64,000 bases of DNA from Thermoanaerobaculia bacterium (GTDB lineage Bacteria; Acidobacteriota; Thermoanaerobaculia; UBA5066): contig JBBRRY010000002.1 in NCBI GenBank assembly GCA_038245905.1, positions 64,001 to 128,000 of the forward strand, read 5' to 3'. Both the position numbers and the translations under genes were made by a program. Position 1 is the first letter of the stretch, and each line of letters starts with the position of its first letter. Below, piece after piece: positions 1,274 to 8,691 of the stretch. The notes beneath the pieces are model-generated. The model was given only the letters and a program-made list of their open reading frames with translations. It had not been told where the DNA came from and did not search any database.

Positions 1274-1717
1274 TCATGCCGGGATCAATTCGAGGGTTCC
1301 GCGCTCCGCTTCGATCACGGCCGCGACGGGAATACCCCGGTCGAACGTGGCGAGTCTCCCCTTCCTGCTCGTTGTAAGACCCAGTAGGTAGACGTCCGTC
1401 AGCTTCTGATGAGACACGGGCGCGGTCCACCTGAAAAGACCGGGATCGCGAAGCGAGACTTCGTCCGGCCAGAAGACGTGCCCGCCGCTCGCGCAGAATT
1501 CGCCTAGGCGGCGGACGATTGCTCCCCGCGTCTCGGGGCTGGCCATGTAGGCCGGGTTCGAGAGAATCCGCACGAGTCCGTTCTCGGTGATCGGACAGGT
1601 GGCCCAGCCACTCTCGCGGTTTTCGCCAAACCACCGGTGAGCGGCTTCGTGGTGCACGTGATCCGGATCGAACAGAGCGACGAGGACGTTGACGTCGAGG
1701 AGGGCGACGCGCGTCAC
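1274..1717 (-). CDS. vapC: VapC-family PIN-domain toxin
   Basis: LLDVNVLVAL, CPITENG, LTDVYLL, LATFDRG: PIN acidic residues; start overlaps the antitoxin stop. Confidence 0.88.
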   Translation of the reverse strand: MTRVALLDVNVLVALFDPDHVHHEAAHRWFGENRESGWATCPITENGLVRILSNPAYMASPETRGAIVRRLGEFCASGGHVFWPDEVSLRDPGLFRWTAPVSHQKLTDVYLLGLTTSRKGRLATFDRGIPVAAVIEAERGTLELIPA

Positions 1718-1941
1718 GCCTCGTCCCGGAGCCTGTTGACGAGAGCCATCGTCGGGCGAACGCTCCCCTTCGGCCGGCGCGGAATCAGCGGAACACCGTT
1801 GCGCACCCGCGGCGCTTTTCCCGGCTCGAGCGCTTTCCGCGCCAAGTCCGACAGAACCCGGCCAGCTGTGGTCGAGCGGTTGGCCGCGATTTCCTTCGCC
1901 GCCTGCAGGACATCGTCGTCGATCTCGAGTGTCGTCCTCAC
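1714..1941 (-). CDS. vapB: VapB-type (ribbon-helix-helix/CopG-like) antitoxin
   Basis: MRTTLEIDDDVLQAAKE...RNGVPL, typical of partners of this VapC type; GTG start at 1941 inferred from the promoter position. Confidence 0.82.
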   Translation of the reverse strand: MRTTLEIDDDVLQAAKEIAANRSTTAGRVLSDLARKALEPGKAPRVRNGVPLIPRRPKGSVRPTMALVNRLRDEA

Positions 1942-1976
1942 GCGGACATCATCACGCATCACGCATCAGATGTCAA
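1942..1976 (-). promoter_or_regulatory. vapBC promoter with putative autoregulatory TGATG direct repeats
   Basis: Minus strand reads TTGACA-17 nt-GATGAT-6 nt-GTG; the spacer carries TGATGCG-TGATGCG-TGATG repeats. Confidence 0.65.
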
Positions 1977-1994: not shown

Positions 1995-3509
1995 TCAGCG
2001 TCCTCGCATCTCGTAGACGAAGCCCATGCCGGGCGTCTTCCTTGCCTCGAGGTCTGCGCGGAAGACGCGGGCTGCGTCCACGTCGGGGAACTCGCCCACG
2101 ACGACTCGATACCAGACGCCCTTCTCCCCGAGATCCACTTCGACCGCGCGCGCGGGCGACCCCAACGCCGCGCCGAGCTTCAGGGCTTCCTTCGCCGCGC
2201 TGTCGCGGTCTTTCGTCGAAGAGAAGTGAATGACGTAGACAGCCGACTTTCCGGACCAGTCGGGCGTCAGGAGAACGGCCGCCTTTCCCCGCGGCACCTC
2301 GGGCGCGGGCTTTGCCGAAGGAGCCGCTGGCTTTGCCGCTAGAGCCACGGGCTTCGCAGCCACGGCCGGCGCGGCCGTCGGGACCGCGACGGGCACCGGA
2401 ACTGTTACAGGGGCCGGCTCGGGTTTCTTGCGCGCGACGAGCGGTGTCGGCTTCACGATCTCGTTCTTGAAGACGTACTCCCGGACGGCCCACGCGAGGC
2501 CAGCCCCGACCGCGAGGACGAGCCCAACGGCCACGAGCCAGCCTCTCCCGCTCGAACGACGGGGCGGCGGGGGGAGAGGATCGGCCGCCTTGAAGTGGAA
2601 TTCCTCCATCGCCGGCTGCGTGTTGTCCTCGAGCAGCTCGGCGAGGCGCGGCGTCTCGGGCGCGGACCTTGCCGCCGGCTCGTGAGGAGGCACGAGCGGG
2701 ATCGACGGGGCGGACGCGACGGCGGGGCGGGGAAGGGGTTTCGGAGCCTCGGTGAGAAGGTCGTCGAGGTTCTCGTCTGTGAGTCTGGGGCGCGGCTCGC
2801 CGAATGGCAGAGTCCCGCTCTCGGCGGGCGCTTTCGATTCGGGTGCGTACGTGAGCGGTGGCGAGTAGCTGACGGGCGGTGGCGCGCCGGCTGGAGGCGC
2901 AGGCGTAACCGCCGGCGGCCGCGGCGGGCCGGACGAAGTCTCCGGCGCGTACGCGAGGGGCGCGGGCGCCGGCACCCGGTCGCGCTCGGGCTCGATCAGC
3001 ACAGAGATCTCGAGAGGACCGCGCGATCTGCGCGGGATCGGCAGGATCGCCGACCGGAACGGCGCGTCGTCGGGCTGAATCGGCAGGTCTTTTTCCCAGT
3101 TCAGATCCGAACGGGAGGCCAGATCCTGGAAGGGATCGTCGGCCGCCGCCGGCTTCGCGGGCGGCTGCGGATGCTGCGTCGTCGGCGATCCCGGCGCCTC
3201 GCGCGCGGGCGCCGGCCGGGCGGGAAAAATGGGCATGGGCGGCGGCTCGGGCTCCGAAACGGGAATCCCCGACCCGTCCCGCTCGAGCTGGAGGCGTGCC
3301 CGCCGTGCGAGCACGTCGAGCGGCGCCGCCTCGAATCCCTGCTTCACCTTCGCCAGCTCCTCGGCGACCACGCTCCGCGCCGCCTTGAACAGCACGGCCG
3401 GATCCGCCGAAACGGTCTTGGCAAGCTCGCGCACGACGTCCGTCACTGACGGAAGCATTCTCTTCCTGGGCTCTGGATCGCGCGGAAAACCTGTGTCGAG
3501 CGGACTCAT
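1995..3509 (-). CDS. Bitopic SPOR-domain protein (cytoplasmic helical N-terminus, long Pro-rich linker, one TM helix, C-terminal SPOR)
   Basis: ATG at 3509 overlaps the actin stop (ATGA); TM WLVAVGLVLAVGAGLAWAV; C-terminus YVIHFSS...A...GVWYRVVVGEF...A matches the SPOR pattern. Confidence 0.8.
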   Translation of the reverse strand: MSPLDTGFPRDPEPRKRMLPSVTDVVRELAKTVSADPAVLFKAARSVVAEELAKVKQGFEAAPLDVLARRARLQLERDGSGIPVSEPEPPPMPIFPARPAPAREAPGSPTTQHPQPPAKPAAADDPFQDLASRSDLNWEKDLPIQPDDAPFRSAILPIPRRSRGPLEISVLIEPERDRVPAPAPLAYAPETSSGPPRPPAVTPAPPAGAPPPVSYSPPLTYAPESKAPAESGTLPFGEPRPRLTDENLDDLLTEAPKPLPRPAVASAPSIPLVPPHEPAARSAPETPRLAELLEDNTQPAMEEFHFKAADPLPPPPRRSSGRGWLVAVGLVLAVGAGLAWAVREYVFKNEIVKPTPLVARKKPEPAPVTVPVPVAVPTAAPAVAAKPVALAAKPAAPSAKPAPEVPRGKAAVLLTPDWSGKSAVYVIHFSSTKDRDSAAKEALKLGAALGSPARAVEVDLGEKGVWYRVVVGEFPDVDAARVFRADLEARKTPGMGFVYEMRGR

Positions 3510-4525
3510 GCCGACAGCGGCTCCCAGTCTCCTTCGGGCGCGTCCAGCGCGATGGCAAGGCCGCCATTCGAGCCCGCGAAGACCGGATCGTCCACGGTGC
3601 GCACCCGGCCCCCGCCGAGCTCGGAAAGCGTCTTCTCGAGCGCGGCCGCGAAACCGGGCAGCTGCGAGCCGCCGCCCGCGAGGACGATGCTGTGCTGCAC
3701 CTTTTCCTGGTATTCCGGCTCGACCTTGGAGAGGAGGTCGAGCATCGTCTCGGCGATGGGCCCGACGATGCTCTCGCAGGCCTTCTTCATCTCGGCCGTA
3801 ATGTCGACGTCCGCCGGCTTCCCCTTCACGGGGAACCGCACGACGACCGGACCCGGCGGGCTCCCGACGAAGCTGTGCTTCTCCTTCCACTCGCGCACCA
3901 TGTGAACCGAGATACGACCGTCGGGGTTCTTCGCCTTGACGAGCATCATGAGCTGCTCGTCGACGGAGTCTCCCGCGTGCGTGAGCGTTCGCTGGTCGTC
4001 GTCGGTCGGGTAGCGGCCGTTCATGACGCAGAAGTCCGTCGTGCCCGCGCCGATGTCGATGATCATGGTGTGAAGCAGCGCGTCCATTCCGTATGCCACG
4101 GCGAACGGCTCGGACACGATGAGCAGGGCGTCCGCGATCCCCTTCACCGCCGCGCGCAGGTGCTGCCTCGAGACGCGCAGCGCCTCGGCCGGCACGCCGA
4201 CGACGGCCTGCACGGCCTGGCCTTCCTTCCGGCCGGCCAGCGAGATGAGGTGCTTCAGAAGCTCGTGCACGGCCTCCTCGTCCTTCACGGAGCCCTGCTT
4301 GATGAGACCGCGCTCGAGCGGGCGGTGCAGGTCGAGCATGGGCCGGTTCTCGAGCGCCTCGGCGCCAAAGAGGATCGGCTTTTTCACGACCTTGCGGGCC
4401 ACCATGTCCAGGGGCCAGCCCACGTAACTCTCCACGACGTGATGCGCGCCGTTCGAGGCCGTGATCGCGCTCCGCGACGTGCCGAGGTCGATCCCGACGT
4501 GGAGAACATCCTTCTTCCCGCTCAT
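3506..4525 (-). CDS. MamK-like bacterial actin (MreB/MamK superfamily)
   Basis: Actin motifs GIDLGTS, VSEPFAVAYG, DIGAGTTD, LAGGGS; blocks such as VVGVPA, KEKHSFVG, EPEYQ, DPVF resemble MamK more than MreB (from memory). GGAG RBS before ATG 4525. Confidence 0.85.
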   Translation of the reverse strand: MSGKKDVLHVGIDLGTSRSAITASNGAHHVVESYVGWPLDMVARKVVKKPILFGAEALENRPMLDLHRPLERGLIKQGSVKDEEAVHELLKHLISLAGRKEGQAVQAVVGVPAEALRVSRQHLRAAVKGIADALLIVSEPFAVAYGMDALLHTMIIDIGAGTTDFCVMNGRYPTDDDQRTLTHAGDSVDEQLMMLVKAKNPDGRISVHMVREWKEKHSFVGSPPGPVVVRFPVKGKPADVDITAEMKKACESIVGPIAETMLDLLSKVEPEYQEKVQHSIVLAGGGSQLPGFAAALEKTLSELGGGRVRTVDDPVFAGSNGGLAIALDAPEGDWEPLSA

Positions 4526-4526
4526 G

Positions 4527-5519
4527 TCAACTCCGATTGGAGGGCGGATGGTTCCGCGCCTCCGCGTACGCGAGGATTCCGTTCGAAAGCGCCCGTGCGA
4601 TCTGCTGACGATACCCGGGTTCCCGGAGATGACGCGCCTCTTCGTCGTTCGACACGGTCGAGACCTCCGCGAGAATGCCCGGCATCTCCGTTGCGATGAG
4701 GACGACGAACGGCGCGCTCCGGACACCGCGGTCCTGGAGCCGGGGCACGAAGGGCCGGAGCGAGGTCACGAGGCCGCCCTGAACGGACTCGGCGAACTTC
4801 CGGGATTCGCCCTGACGGGCGTCCGCGAGGACTCCCTCGAGAAGGCGCCGGAAGTCGGCCATCGTGTAGCCCGAGGAGCGGTTCTCGTCTCCCGCGAGCT
4901 GCTGCACGTGAGGATCGGTCGTGGTGCCGAGAAAATACGTCTCGACGCCGCGCTTGTCCTTCACCGAGGGGAGCGAGTTCACGTGAATCGAGACGAAGAG
5001 ATCGGACTTCCTCGCGTTCGCGAAGGCCACGCGATCCTTCAACGACAGGGTCGCATCCGCCTCGCGGGTCAGCGACACGGCGATCTTCTGGGCGACGAGA
5101 AGGTCCCGAAGGCGGCGCGCCACGTCGAGCGTCACGTCCTTTTCGGCGATGCCGGAGGCCGTCGCGCCCGGATCCGCCCCGCCATGCCCCGGGTCGATGA
5201 CGACGGAGCGCACTTCGAGACGGAAGAGCGAAGGCTCGAGGCCGTTCGGCGCGTTGATGACACTTGCGGGCGCCGCAGGCGCCGCGGACGGAGACGACAC
5301 GACGAGAACGTCCGTGCGCTCGCCGCGCCCCGTGGTCAGGGCGTTGATGGAGAGGAACAGAGCCAACGGCACGACGATGAAAATGGACGTCCGAAACAGT
5401 ATGCGGCGCACGCGGTCCGAGCGCCGGAGGCCCTTGGGAAGCCGCCCTTCGATGACGTCCACGTTCTCGCGGATCGCGTCCTTGAGGATTGACTGCCGGA
5501 GTCGGTTCACGTTGGCCAT
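4527..5519 (-). CDS. N-acetylmuramoyl-L-alanine amidase (Amidase_3) with N-terminal cytoplasmic tail and TM anchor
   Basis: IDPGHGG, EKDVTL, FVSIHVNS, LAEV zinc/catalytic motifs; hydrophobic segment IFIVVPLALFLSI after a basic tail of about 40 aa. Confidence 0.9.
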   Translation of the reverse strand: MANVNRLRQSILKDAIRENVDVIEGRLPKGLRRSDRVRRILFRTSIFIVVPLALFLSINALTTGRGERTDVLVVSSPSAAPAAPASVINAPNGLEPSLFRLEVRSVVIDPGHGGADPGATASGIAEKDVTLDVARRLRDLLVAQKIAVSLTREADATLSLKDRVAFANARKSDLFVSIHVNSLPSVKDKRGVETYFLGTTTDPHVQQLAGDENRSSGYTMADFRRLLEGVLADARQGESRKFAESVQGGLVTSLRPFVPRLQDRGVRSAPFVVLIATEMPGILAEVSTVSNDEEARHLREPGYRQQIARALSNGILAYAEARNHPPSNRS

Positions 5520-6295
5520 GAATGTCCCAAAAAGGGTAGCACCTGACCGCTCTTCGACTGGAGGAGCCAGCGTGTCGCGGGGTGCTGGGGGTCCTTCAGG
5601 ACCTTCGCGGGCGGACCTTCCTCGACGACGACGCCGTCCGCGAGAATGACGACCCGCGTGGCGAAATCGAGCACGAAGTCGTCGTCGTGCGTCGCGACGA
5701 CGAGCGTCCTGCCGTCCTTCTCCACGAGCGCCGCCAGCGTTCGTCCCAGCTCGTTGCGGCGCGCCGGATCGAGGGAGGCCGTCGGCTCGTCCATCAGAAG
5801 GAGAGGCGGCTCCATCGCGAGCGTGCGCGCGATCGAGACGCGCTGAGCTTCCCCGCCCGAGAGCTCGCGCGGCAGCGCGCGCGCGTGCCGCTCGACTCCG
5901 AGGGACGCGAGCAGCGCGAGCGCCCGCTCTTCGGCGGCACCTCTCGCGAGCCTGGCGACATGCAAGGGAGCGAGCGTCACGTTGTCGAGGACCGAGAGGT
6001 GCTCGAAGAGGCCGTGGTACTGGAAGACCATCCCGACGCGCGTACGCAGCGACCGAAGCGTCTCCGCGGAGGGCGGCGGCCCGGGCTTGAGCGCGACGCC
6101 GCCCACATCCACCGACCCCGCGTCGAATCCCTCGAGGCCGACGACTGCCCGAAGGACGGTCGTCTTTCCGCCGCCCGAGAGCCCCATGAGCGCGAGAAGC
6201 TCACCGCGCGCGACGGAAAGCGTCACGCCGTTCAAGACGCCGGCCGCGCCCCGCGAGAGGCATAGACCGTCGATCGCGAGGACGGATGCGTTCAC
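5507..6295 (-). CDS. Polar amino acid ABC transporter ATP-binding protein
   Basis: GLSGGGKT, LSGGE, LLMDEPT, ATHD. Confidence 0.9.
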   Translation of the reverse strand: MNASVLAIDGLCLSRGAAGVLNGVTLSVARGELLALMGLSGGGKTTVLRAVVGLEGFDAGSVDVGGVALKPGPPPSAETLRSLRTRVGMVFQYHGLFEHLSVLDNVTLAPLHVARLARGAAEERALALLASLGVERHARALPRELSGGEAQRVSIARTLAMEPPLLLMDEPTASLDPARRNELGRTLAALVEKDGRTLVVATHDDDFVLDFATRVVILADGVVVEEGPPAKVLKDPQHPATRWLLQSKSGQVLPFLGHSWPT

Positions 6296-7840
6296 CTATG
6301 AGGCCGCCTTCCAACGTCCCTCGAGTCGTCGCGCGAGGCGCGCGAGAGGGATCGACATCGCGAGATACAGGCCCGCGCACAAGGCGCCGGGGACAGCCCA
6401 GCTCGCGATGTTCGTCGCGAAGATGGCCGTCTGCTTCGTGAGCTCGACGACTGTCACGACGGAAACGAGCGACGAGTCCTTCAGGAGAGCGACGAAGTCG
6501 TTCGTCATGGGAGCGAGCGCGAGCCGGAAGGCCTGCGGCCCGCGAACGAGGCGGAGGACTTGCCCCTCCGTGAGGCCGAGCGTCCGCGCGGCCTCGAGCT
6601 GTCCCTTCGGCACGGCCTCGAGCGCGCCCCGGTAGATCTCGCTCTCGTACGCGGCGTAGTTCAGCCCGAGGCCGAGAAGCGCCGCGACGAACGCGGGCAG
6701 GCGCACGACGGACGAGAGCCCGTAGTAGAGGACGAAGAGCTGGAGGAGAACCGGCGTCCCGCGCGTGATCTCGACGTAGGCCGTCAGGAGCAGGCGGACC
6801 GGCGCGTTCCCGTAGACGCGCCCGCTCGCGATCGCGACGCCGAGGGCGACCGCCAGCGCCATCGCGAGGCACGAAAGCGAGATCGTCACGAAGGCGGCCT
6901 TCAGCAGAGAAGGGAGATAGGAGATGACGAGGGAAAGAGATGAAGAAGAGAAGATCTTCTTAGAAGGTGAAGAAGGCAACGGGAGCTTCTCGCCCGCCCG
7001 AAGCGTTTCAGCGGCGCCTGCAGCCTCTTTACCATTCAAAGAAATCTCTCTCTTCTCTTCCTCTCTTTTCTCAAATGCCGCCTGCTGGTCGTCCCAGACA
7101 TTCCACTTCTCGAAGATCCTTCGCAGCGTCCCGTCCTTCATCGCCGCGACGAGAATTGCGTCGATGCCGTCGCGGAGCGCCGCGTTCTTCTTCGAGAGGA
7201 CGCCGACGTACCACCCCGTCGAGGCGGTGCCGGGCTGGATCGCGATTCCCGCGACGCGGCGCACCGAGCGCGCCGCGAGGACGTGGTCGAGGAGGACGGC
7301 GTCGAGGCGGCCGTTCGCGAGGTCCTCGTATGGATGGACGTCGTCGTCGTAGGAGACCGGGAGGATCCCGTCCGTCTTCCCGGCCGCGACGAGCAAGTCC
7401 CATGCGATCGTCCCCGCGAGCGTGCCAACCCTCCGGCCACGGAGTTCCGCGAGCGTGCGTAAGCGCGAAACGTCGGCCTCTCGCACCGTGAGGACCTCGC
7501 GAAACTCGAAGTACGGGGCCGTGACAGAGAGTGAGGCGCGCCGCTGGGGGGTGTCTTCGATTCCCGAGAAGCCGATGTCGAAGTCGCCGCGCGCGGCCGA
7601 CTGGTCCAGCGACTGAAATGCGACCTGGACGAAAACAGATGTTCTCCCGAGACGTCTTGCGACGAGATTCGCGATCTCTACGTCGAAACCGCGCACCTTC
7701 GAGGGATCGGCCGGGTCGGCTTCGACAAAGGGCGCGCCCCCTTCCGCGTCGCCGCCCCAGCGGAGCACGAGCGGATCCGGCACGGCCGCGCGCGCCGCGC
7801 CGGGGAGCAGGAGGATCCCGGCGAGGACGGCCCGGATCAA
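6296..7840 (-). CDS. Fused amino acid ABC transporter substrate-binding protein/permease
   Basis: SBP_bac_3-like N-half (GFDVEIA, LANGRLDAV) and HisM-type permease C-half (RGTPVLLQLF, EAARTLG, LLKDSSLVS). TTG start at 7840 inferred from overlap with the psd stop. Confidence 0.85.
   Translation of the reverse strand: MIRAVLAGILLLPGAARAAVPDPLVLRWGGDAEGGAPFVEADPADPSKVRGFDVEIANLVARRLGRTSVFVQVAFQSLDQSAARGDFDIGFSGIEDTPQRRASLSVTAPYFEFREVLTVREADVSRLRTLAELRGRRVGTLAGTIAWDLLVAAGKTDGILPVSYDDDVHPYEDLANGRLDAVLLDHVLAARSVRRVAGIAIQPGTASTGWYVGVLSKKNAALRDGIDAILVAAMKDGTLRRIFEKWNVWDDQQAAFEKREEEKREISLNGKEAAGAAETLRAGEKLPLPSSPSKKIFSSSSLSLVISYLPSLLKAAFVTISLSCLAMALAVALGVAIASGRVYGNAPVRLLLTAYVEITRGTPVLLQLFVLYYGLSSVVRLPAFVAALLGLGLNYAAYESEIYRGALEAVPKGQLEAARTLGLTEGQVLRLVRGPQAFRLALAPMTNDFVALLKDSSLVSVVTVVELTKQTAIFATNIASWAVPGALCAGLYLAMSIPLARLARRLEGRWKAAS
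6931..7075. repeat. Intragenic AT-rich inverted motif pair, copy A
   Basis: GAAGATCTTCTTAGAAGG (6950-6967) and CCATTCAAAGAAATCTC (7032-7048), flanked by purine and pyrimidine tracts. Confidence 0.6.
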
Positions 7841-8691
7841 GACGACAGGCTCCCGAGCCGCTCCCCCATCTTCACGGGCCCGAGGCCGCGCGCCGGATTC
7901 CACTCCACGGCTCTCGGCCCGCCGACGAGCAAAACGACGGTCGATCCGAGCTCGAAGACGCCGAGATCGTCGCCCGGCGCGCACGCAACGGAGGCGACCT
8001 CGAGGCGGCCGCGCCGCGGCAGCGCGCGCCCCGCGAGCCAACGCGGGTCGATCACGACGCCGCCCACGTGCGTCGCCGCGACCATGACAGCGGCCACGAC
8101 GAGTCCTTCGGCCTCCCGGACGCCACGCGCAATCCAGTAGGCGCGCCGGTTCCTCACGTAGAGCCGCGGCGTCGCGGCCGTGGAGGCCGCGTTGACAGGC
8201 CAGAGCTCCCCTTCCACGCGTCCGACCGCGACGCACGCTCCCGAGAGCGGGACGTGAATGCGGTGGTAGTCCTTCGGGGCGAGATACAGCGCCAGGTAGC
8301 GGGCGCTGGTGAACTCGGATGCGCAGGCGTCGTCGTCGAGGAGCTCGGCGAGGCGGTACGGCAGGCCTTTGGCCTGGATGAGCGTGCCCTCCTCAACCCG
8401 CCCCTCGGCGATCACGAGCCCGTCGATCGGCGAATTGATTCCGCCCGCCACGACGGGCGCTTGCGGCCTCAGACCCGGCCTCAGCCGCCGCGTGAAGAAA
8501 TCGAGAAACGACACGTAGGTGCCGAGATCCTTCTCCGCTTCGTCGAGGTTCGCGCCGAATGCGGCCGCGAACCGGCCGAGGAGCGGGCGGCGCAAGCGCA
8601 CGGGGAGGCGCAGCCGGGCGAGCGCTCCCACCGCGAGAGAGCCTGCCTTCTTGGGATAGAGCCGAAGGAGGCGGAGATCCGCTACGTCCAT
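7837..8691 (-). CDS. psd: Phosphatidylserine decarboxylase proenzyme
   Basis: DFFTRRL, SPIDG, QAKG, YLAPKDYHRIH, and the LGST autocleavage site. Confidence 0.9.
   Translation of the reverse strand: MDVADLRLLRLYPKKAGSLAVGALARLRLPVRLRRPLLGRFAAAFGANLDEAEKDLGTYVSFLDFFTRRLRPGLRPQAPVVAGGINSPIDGLVIAEGRVEEGTLIQAKGLPYRLAELLDDDACASEFTSARYLALYLAPKDYHRIHVPLSGACVAVGRVEGELWPVNAASTAATPRLYVRNRRAYWIARGVREAEGLVVAAVMVAATHVGGVVIDPRWLAGRALPRRGRLEVASVACAPGDDLGVFELGSTVVLLVGGPRAVEWNPARGLGPVKMGERLGSLSS

Follow-up and report, generated by a model that had tools for sequence, protein, structure and literature searches.

What does an actin of the MamK family do in a bacterium in whose genome none of five searched magnetosome protein families scores over its cut-off, and why does its gene stand directly behind that of a cell-wall amidase? 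The question is raised by a 64,000-nucleotide stretch of DNA, here called the window, from a Thermoanaerobaculia bacterium (Acidobacteriota; NCBI GenBank assembly GCA_038245905.1, contig JBBRRY010000002.1, positions 64,001 to 128,000), in which three minus-strand genes lie head to tail and encode a membrane-anchored N-acetylmuramoyl-L-alanine amidase (P0003), a MamK-like actin (P0001) and a bitopic protein with a SPOR domain (P0002). An original prediction, made from the sequence alone, described these genes as tightly coupled and proposed a self-contained module in which a MamK-type filament positions the amidase and the SPOR protein. The open reading frames (ORFs), the single nucleotide between the amidase stop and the actin ATG, and the overlap of the SPOR-gene start with the actin stop as ATGA are all as it described them. 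The follow-up analysis presented here finds that P0001 is not a stray MamK but a member of a distinct, well-supported subfamily, that the conserved unit is the pair of amidase and actin and not the three genes, and that the cytoplasmic tail of the amidase is probably what the filament acts on, so as to hold or gate the enzyme, a reading to which a probability of about 0.6 is given.

A distinct subfamily of MamK-family actins

Among the NCBIfam models, the best for P0001 is that of MamK (NF040964; 371.8 bits, E 2.9e-111), with 217.3 bits against the BeeR model NF053558 (cut-off 530) and 72.7 and 57.2 bits against the MreB models (cut-offs 293 and 365.75, respectively); the Pfam family MreB_Mbl (PF06723) is matched at 78 bits, above its gathering score. 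The closest solved structures are those of Magnetospirillum MamK (5LJW, 5JYG and 5LJV; E 1.6e-74), against E-values of 3.3e-44 for BeeR (8R2N) and about 5e-11 for MreB entries of the Protein Data Bank (PDB), and residues 5-337 of P0001 align to residues 9-341 of MamK (5LJW and 5JYG) without a gap over 333 residues. Since both the NCBIfam and the PDB scores are far higher for MamK, P0001 is a MamK-family actin and not MreB, as had been proposed from MamK motifs; these motifs (GIDLGTS, VGYPKD, AVIGVPA, VSEPFMVGYG, DIGAGTTDIC, KEQFSFVG, QPEYQ and DPTF) are indeed present in the alignment of P0001 with MamK.

The nucleotide-binding motifs DLGT, DIGAGTTD and GGGS, which we take to be the phosphate-1, phosphate-2 and adenosine motifs, also align to MamK, and residues D13, G15, D157, G159 and G284 of P0001 are invariant in a 74-row alignment. 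The ATPase residues E143 and D161 of MamK presumably correspond to E139 and D157 of P0001, the latter invariant and the former present in at least 90% of rows (alignment A4). Membership in BeeR calls for a score over 530 bits and for 30-50 disordered residues ahead of the actin fold; in P0001 this fold starts at residue 8. The protein has no strong hydrophobic segment on the Kyte-Doolittle scale. Its identity to the actins of high-scoring MamK loci is about 39-43%.

The original prediction was to be checked by phylogeny, and the trees place the actin in a clade of amidase-linked actins. In a quick tree of 98 rows, with the MreB of the host genome as outgroup, one clade (Shimodaira-Hasegawa-like approximate likelihood ratio test, SH-aLRT, 90) takes in every one of the 44 amidase-linked rows, together with a representative whose gene context is unknown, and within it Thermoanaerobaculia form a subclade with support of 100. 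In a more careful tree of 41 rows (LG+G4), the amidase-linked clade is supported at 99/96 and the class at 100/100, while the MamK of Nitrospirota and that of Alphaproteobacteria form clades of their own (100/100 and 94/98, respectively); P0001 lies inside the first and outside both of the latter. Phyla are mixed inside the amidase-linked clade, as seen for a Rhodospirillaceae row standing with Desulfobulbaceae rows in the 98-row tree, which suggests some horizontal transfer. The branching order among the subfamilies of the MamK family is weakly supported (81-88), and a wall-linked role ancestral to MamK is therefore no more than a possibility. BeeR was sought among ten further representatives and not found there, the top BeeR score being 207.5 bits against the cut-off of 530, so that BeeR itself is not in the trees.

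Most relatives bear the public name 'rod shape-determining protein MreB', and one amidase-linked actin, in a metagenome-assembled genome (MAG) of Nitrospira, goes under 'MamK family actin-like protein'; either name gives a wrong idea of what the amidase-linked actins do. MamK-like actin domains can also be found at the C-terminus of proteins of 700-1232 residues (P0131, P0140-P0148, P0150, P0151, P0153 and P0164), where they are 38-44% identical to P0001. The N-terminal 400-900 residues of these fusion proteins are rich in Lys, Glu and Gln and matched no Pfam family, and six of the proteins form a clade of their own in the 98-row tree (SH-aLRT 96).

The conserved unit is the pair of amidase and actin

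A sample of 121 genomes of the class, one of them unpublished (G104), was searched with the MamK model, which finds one match each in 77 genomes from 34 of the 60 genera, none of them over the cut-off. Regions of 13 kb were taken from 20 of the 77, covering all 12 families with matches, and an amidase gene stands directly upstream of the actin in every one. A wider search with a 7-row profile, made over one genome for each species, gave 586 relatives, and in all of the best 80 the amidase gene shares the strand of the actin gene and ends 0-150 nt before it. Nine named phyla are represented in the best 80 of the 586 (Nitrospirota, Pseudomonadota, Thermodesulfobacteriota, Rhodothermota, Acidobacteriota, Myxococcota, Rokuibacteriota, Bacteroidota and Gemmatimonadota), and eight records have no phylum label. 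One of the 80 is a cultured carrier, Rubrivirga litoralis F394 (L136).

The high-scoring MamK proteins behave differently. The model matches 45 of 201 sampled genomes of Thermodesulfovibrionia (Nitrospirota), with scores that fall in two groups: the amidase is present in 13 of 13 loci scoring 420-441 bits and in 0 of 17 scoring 455-507 bits. It is also absent from all 20 best loci (521-549 bits) of the 33 matching genomes in a sample of 251 from an alphaproteobacterial order. Overall, the amidase stands upstream in 113/113 loci of the actin subfamily and in 0/37 high-scoring MamK loci (455-549 bits), and over these 150 loci its presence or absence coincides with the score groups. The other neighbours of the pair vary while the adjacency of the amidase stays strict. 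Conservation of the three-gene neighbourhood was to be tested in related genomes; it is strict for the pair, in 113 loci and nine named phyla and hence far beyond such relatives, and not for the trio.

No genome was seen with both actin types among the 78 with matches in the two samples (45 of Thermodesulfovibrionia and 33 alphaproteobacterial). Two Thermodesulfovibrionia genomes have two matches (G255 and G260) without a lower-scoring match of the amidase-linked type, and in two alphaproteobacterial genomes with two matches (G388 and G455) both score at the level of MamK. The two types may be mutually exclusive, or the pattern may reflect kinship together with incomplete MAGs.

A membrane-anchored amidase with a conserved cytoplasmic tail

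The catalytic domain of P0003 belongs to Amidase_3 (PF01520; E 6.7e-48, 163.5 bits against a gathering score of 27) and aligns over its whole length to E. coli AmiA (8C2O, 5.4e-29) and Bartonella AmiB (3NE8). It shares with these two proteins an insert at about residues 197-250, which presumably holds the autoinhibitory helix in division amidases, and CwlV-type amidases match P0003 only to about residue 199. Residues H112, E126, H179 and E285, which we take to be metal ligands or the catalytic residue, are invariant in 73 relatives. The scores of P0003 are below the equivalog cut-offs for AmiA (118.5 against 400 bits), AmiC (106.9 against 700) and AmiB (76.8 against 532).

AmiA, AmiB and AmiC are soluble periplasmic enzymes with a Tat or Sec signal, and AmiB and AmiC have an AMIN domain as well. 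Instead of a signal peptide, P0003 has a cytoplasmic tail of roughly 40 residues followed by a transmembrane (TM) helix, whose top 19-residue Kyte-Doolittle window, starting at residue 40, reaches 2.28. Both proteins flanking the actin had been described as single-pass proteins with cytoplasmic N-termini; one strong hydrophobic segment is present in each, and domain logic and hydropathy argue for the N-in topology. The tail contains a helix motif with the consensus K..ILRGVYEENL, in P0003 RLRQSILKDAIRENV, which is seen in the amidases of all phyla sampled, from Acidobacteriota to Pseudomonadota; at least 90% of 73 rows retain residue N19. The tail is therefore conserved across phyla despite being short and cytoplasmic.

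Predicted docking of the tail on the actin

The complex of the actin (74-row alignment) with residues 1-40 of the amidase (73-row alignment) was predicted in three runs, which gave interaction prediction scores from aligned errors (ipSAE) of 0.80, 0.79 and 0.80, against 0.02 for the best of three controls. The mark for this score is reached by 58 of 80 solved complexes and by 2 of 110 mismatched pairs, rates that are approximate, since own alignments were used. The predicted local distance difference test (pLDDT) value of the partner is 66-67, and at least 90% of the contacts agree between runs. Tail residues 4-25 are predicted to meet actin residues 117-124, 134-151, 170-172 and 325-337, a surface that we take to be the hydrophobic cleft between actin subdomains IA and IIA. 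Position 124, within this predicted interface, is Arg or Lys in 110 of 113 amidase-linked actins and Leu in 34 of 37 high-scoring MamK proteins. The docking of the amidase tail on the actin is thus suggested by the structure model.

The SPOR protein and the variable third gene

The SPOR domain of P0002 (PF05036) scores 27.1 bits against a cut-off of 21 (E 5.4e-6), and those of its homologues reach E-values down to 1.5e-18. The protein is laid out as a helical cytoplasmic N-domain, a Pro-rich linker, a TM segment (Kyte-Doolittle maximum 2.22 at residue 324), a Pro/Ala-rich linker and the SPOR domain. The N-domain has 11 invariant columns in an alignment of nine relatives (A7) and is predicted by AlphaFold2, at a mean pLDDT of 79, to form helices at residues 22-32, 37-56 and 64-78; it gave no Pfam match and, in Foldseek, no PDB fold match at E ≤ 0.001. 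A suspected resemblance of this domain (residues 1-95, window 3225-3509) to the N-terminal domain of SelA found no support, 3WCN standing at Foldseek rank 18 with an E-value of 2.0, a TM-score of 0.45 and 24% identity over 63 columns. In the first linker (residues 90-320, window 2600-3250), an island of the form DDPF ... DL.WE.D at about residues 124-150 is conserved among the homologues of family f1 and, judged from this conservation, may be a linear binding motif.

The SPOR protein had been counted as part of the module, and here the outcome is divided: tblastn detects homologues of P0002, which share the conserved cytoplasmic N-domain, at 6 of the 20 class loci (families f1, f3 and f11), while SPOR itself recurs. 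A crude ORF caller applied to the 113 loci finds a same-strand ORF just downstream of the actin in 62 of them, in groups of 25, 9, 4, 3 and 2 and singletons, and a scan of 39 of these proteins (the three largest groups and P0002) shows SPOR in 32, a receiver domain in 21 and PilZ in 5. SPOR is hence found behind at least two unrelated cytoplasmic domains, the receiver domain and the novel helical domain. The third gene encodes a receiver-TM-SPOR protein in Nitrospirota and their neighbours, and a PilZ-TM protein with an unassigned C-terminal domain in other families of the class. The recurrence of SPOR fits the logic of the amidase product being read; SPOR domains are reported to bind amidase-processed glycan (PMC7822825).

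Some side observations concern these third genes. At L076, L080 and 19 further loci, from Nitrospirota and relatives, the product of the gene after the actin combines a receiver domain with a membrane segment and SPOR, and in L076 the phospho-acceptor position of the receiver appears by eye to be Lys and not Asp. The C-terminal domain of the PilZ type looks similar to AMIN, but Pfam found no AMIN domain in it. At one locus of Thermodesulfovibrionales, a gene 38 nt after the actin (L100:1695-2465, plus strand) encodes a hydrophobic N-terminus and a Ysc84 domain (7.8e-38), a family described as 'Las17-binding protein actin regulator'.

How the filament may act on the amidase

In the mechanism proposed, the MamK-family actin would polymerise in the cytoplasm, the N-terminal helix of the amidase would dock in the hydrophobic IA/IIA cleft of the actin, and the filament would then control the site, or the occurrence, of stem-peptide removal from peptidoglycan by the periplasmic domain. 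In this lineage, the periplasmic SPOR domain encoded by the third, translationally coupled gene would bind the denuded glycan made by the amidase, and the cytoplasmic domain of the same protein may report back to the filament. The module would resemble, in compact form, the loop of FtsA, FtsN and amidases in the E. coli divisome, and the process served could be cell separation or local remodelling of shape.

Several points weigh against this proposal. The MamK score of P0001 is below the curated cut-off of 400 bits. Much of the 113/113 count is shared descent within clades, and the relatives are not independent. Most residues of the cleft are shared with high-scoring MamK, in which F141, Y145, L150 and G170 are conserved too, and the cleft is generic to actins; peptide-in-cleft complexes of other actins have been solved, and part of the docking score may therefore be likeness to them. 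The score is a model confidence and not a measurement. The cleft may also be filled by the next subunit of the filament, in which case the tail may bind only monomers or ends, and the mechanism would then be capping or nucleation and not positioning. With the crude ORF caller, no same-strand ORF follows the actin in 51 of the 113 loci, some of them cut by contig ends, so that a SPOR partner is not general. As a weak hint of transcription, contigs from a soil metatranscriptome library, 88-96% identical to this stretch and derived from close relatives, span the SPOR/actin junction (3283-3533) and the actin/amidase junction (4417-4567); they are no proof of transcription, since such libraries may contain DNA, and a contig across two genes is no proof of a single transcript. 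Among DNA sequencing runs, a single one contains most of the stretch and may be its source; the shares in all others are small and are no guide to habitat.

Given that gene order and a structure model are all that link actin and amidase, the two could be merely co-regulated, the actin serving another cargo such as DNA, an inclusion or polarity, and the amidase being no more than a conserved operon neighbour. The generic nature of the docking cleft agrees with this, as do BeeR and saltatorellin, MamK-like actins of non-magnetotactic bacteria to which no function is assigned in their descriptions. Such an explanation is to be taken seriously but is unlikely, because the adjacency is strict in nine named phyla while all other neighbours change, because a conserved cytoplasmic tail has no other obvious use in a periplasmic enzyme, and because the prediction separates the pair so widely from its controls and places a clade-specific basic residue (position 124) in the interface.

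The coupling could also run in the opposite direction, with the membrane-bound tail serving, like ParR in the case of ParM, to nucleate, cap or anchor filaments there, and the amidase being the periplasmic read-out. The predicted site would suit this, being the cleft that longitudinal contacts or partner peptides use in other actins. Nothing in the analysis separates this idea from the control of the amidase by the filament, of which it is a variant with the same physical coupling; it appears rather improbable.

The remaining explanations were weighed against the host genome, a Thermoanaerobaculia MAG of 3.8 Mb in 113 contigs that is 96.4% complete, its class being borne out by the names of near-identical public proteins. 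Another MreB-like protein that sets cell shape together with the elongasome would agree with the Pfam MreB_Mbl match and with the public names of the relatives, but the NCBIfam MreB scores lie far below their cut-offs, mreCD do not stand beside the actin, and a canonical MreB is encoded elsewhere in the genome, which makes this option very improbable. A genome-wide check for a separate mreBCD had been proposed, and contig C34 carries mreB (487.5 bits, PF06723), then mreC (104 bits) and then a match to MreD that is weak, with 21.2 bits against a cut-off of 24. Two more Amidase_3 matches occur in the genome, a secreted protein of 525 residues with a Cu_amine_oxidN1 domain (173.8 bits) and a weaker third one, and the actin-linked amidase is thus an extra paralogue.

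A magnetosome or organelle-positioning MamK, with the rest of its cluster elsewhere or lost, is only a slight possibility. The best family match is to MamK, with the identity to high-scoring loci given above, but P0001 lies outside both high-scoring MamK clades, whose loci lack the amidase, and models of MamM, MamB, MamP, MamQ and MamE found nothing over cut-off in the host genome (MamA, MamI, MamL and MamO were not searched). The earlier statement that magnetosome genes are absent from the window is thereby extended to the whole genome for five mam families. Generic CDF, LemA and HtrA matches are scattered over different contigs, and control genomes give matches of the same kind. One of the 37 high-scoring MamK loci (L172, Nitrospirota) was checked for mam-gene neighbours as a positive control, and there the NCBIfam models recognise MamA, MamB, MamQ, MamM and MamP beside MamK, MamM scoring 388.7 bits against a cut-off of 350.

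Locus layout and neighbouring genes

The features of the locus are collected in Table 1. Upstream of the amidase lie a gene for an ATPase of the ATP-binding cassette (ABC) type (5507-6295, minus strand), whose last 13 nt are shared with the start of the amidase gene, and a fused solute-binding and permease gene (SBP_bac_3 and BPD_transp_1; 6296-8236, minus strand). Given this overlap, the transcription unit may start further upstream in this genus. At the same-genus locus L059, the ABC-ATPase match ends about 725 nt from the amidase; among the 20 class loci, ABC-ATPase matches near the module occur only there, with weak ones 3-5 kb away in two others. Directly 3' of the SPOR gene, a VapBC-like pair (1274-1962, minus strand) consists of an 82-residue gene of no family and, overlapping it, a PIN-domain gene (Pfam 1.1e-5); none of the 20 class loci has a PIN or antitoxin match next to the module. 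The ABC-ATPase, permease and PIN/antitoxin genes are not counted as parts of the module.

Table 1. Features of the amidase-actin-SPOR locus (positions in the window)
Feature	Position	Strand	Basis
Membrane-anchored N-acetylmuramoyl-L-alanine amidase P0003, 330 aa	4527..5519	-	tail, TM and Amidase_3
Amidase codons 4-25, cytoplasmic helix motif, predicted actin-docking peptide	5445..5510	-	conservation and predicted interface
Amidase TM, about residues 40-62, Arg-rich stretch before it	5334..5402	-	Kyte-Doolittle
Amidase_3 catalytic domain, residues 106-316	4572..5204	-	Pfam and solved-structure alignment
MamK-family actin, amidase-linked subfamily, P0001, 339 aa	3506..4525	-	NCBIfam, PDB, tree
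Bitopic SPOR protein P0002, 504 aa	1995..3509	-	Pfam, alignment, hydropathy, AlphaFold2
SPOR-protein conserved cytoplasmic N-domain, about residues 20-80, three predicted helices	3270..3452	-	alignment and AlphaFold2
SPOR-protein TM, residues 321-344	2478..2549	-	Kyte-Doolittle
SPOR domain, residues 424-488	2046..2240	-	Pfam PF05036

No minus-strand terminator was found by scanning inside or after the three genes, a result that says little at 68% G+C, and the sole minus-strand promoter-like site (1976-1948, from a scan that is weak at this G+C content) is placed as would suit the toxin-antitoxin pair that follows. It is hardly credible that the module is a cassette for lysis or defence that is mobile or derived from a phage: the actin tree mixes phyla and the VapBC-like pair lies just downstream, but every class genome with a match has a single one, the class clade is supported at 100/100, no phage or transposon genes were among the neighbours scanned, and the toxin-antitoxin pair does not recur next to the module in the other class loci.

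Comparison with known systems

Magnetospirillum MamK belongs to the same actin family and has the nucleotide-binding motifs in common with P0001, but it falls in a separate clade; the high-scoring MamK proteins mostly have Leu where the P0001 type has Arg or Lys at position 124, and none of their 37 loci has the upstream amidase. Parallels to the arrangement come from other systems. The FtsA-FtsN-AmiA/B/C loop likewise combines a cytoplasmic actin-family protein, bitopic proteins whose cytoplasmic parts are short, a regulated-type Amidase_3 enzyme and a SPOR reader; in the present module, by contrast, the amidase is membrane-anchored with a predicted actin-binding tail, the actin is of the MamK type, and the genes form one cassette. 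FtsN consists of a short cytoplasmic tail that binds FtsA, a TM segment, an essential periplasmic helix and a SPOR domain. P0002 has only the TM segment and the SPOR domain in common with FtsN, its cytoplasmic part being about 320 residues long and including a novel helical domain; the FtsN model was not among the NCBIfam matches, and no similarity to FtsN beyond SPOR was seen.

In the MreBH-LytE system of Bacillus subtilis, and for its MreB-guided hydrolases, an actin homologue also governs the site at which a wall hydrolase acts, but LytE is secreted and the link is indirect, whereas a direct contact of tail and actin and a fixed gene module are respectively predicted and found here. LytH of Staphylococcus aureus, of which chain 7TJ4_B matches P0003 at 2e-14, is likewise a membrane-anchored Amidase_3 enzyme dependent on a dedicated partner; that partner, ActH, is a polytopic membrane protein and not a cytoskeletal filament. 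ParM and ParR provide the example of a short helical partner peptide in the IA/IIA cleft, as is predicted here, although ParM belongs to another actin family and serves DNA segregation. A hydrolase that itself carries a filament-binding tail would, if real, be the simplest coupling of filament and hydrolase known to us.

Filament-forming MamK-related actins of non-magnetotactic bacteria have been described before. BeeR from Verrucomicrobiota is 25-30% identical to MamK, forms three-stranded tubes and is stated to be 'presumably with a distinct function' (PMC11929497), and saltatorellin from Saltatorellota is MamK-like and forms filaments in E. coli and Magnetospirillum (bioRxiv 10.1101/817700); neither text mentions an amidase. 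A pairing of MamK with 'N-acetylmuramoyl-L-alanine amidase' was not found in the full-text literature, a search whose scope left out subscription journals and supplements, and nothing relevant on MamK in non-magnetotactic bacteria or Acidobacteria was found in the searchable literature. Within these limits, no description was found of the widespread two-gene module reported here, a MamK-family actin with a single-pass amidase of the regulated (AmiA/B/C-like) type.

Significance

A mamK gene is commonly taken to mark a magnetotactic bacterium. The NCBIfam MamK cut-off is, however, exceeded by amidase-linked actins from other phyla (403-441 bits), and MamK-like matches or the NCBIfam name 'MamK family' are consequently poor evidence of magnetotaxis. 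More broadly, it is tempting, if still speculative, to picture a phylum-spanning actin system that grips an amidase tail, often together with a SPOR signalling protein, and so patterns the cleavage of the wall, with MamK as a recruited offshoot. Wall biology has yet to explain how filaments in the cytoplasm direct hydrolases in the periplasm. The largest group of MamK-like proteins outside magnetotactic bacteria, with at least 586 relatives at one genome per species, gains a proposed function that can be tested, and its amidase-linked members are now provided with a partner, with a peptide predicted to bind and with a residue that sets them apart.

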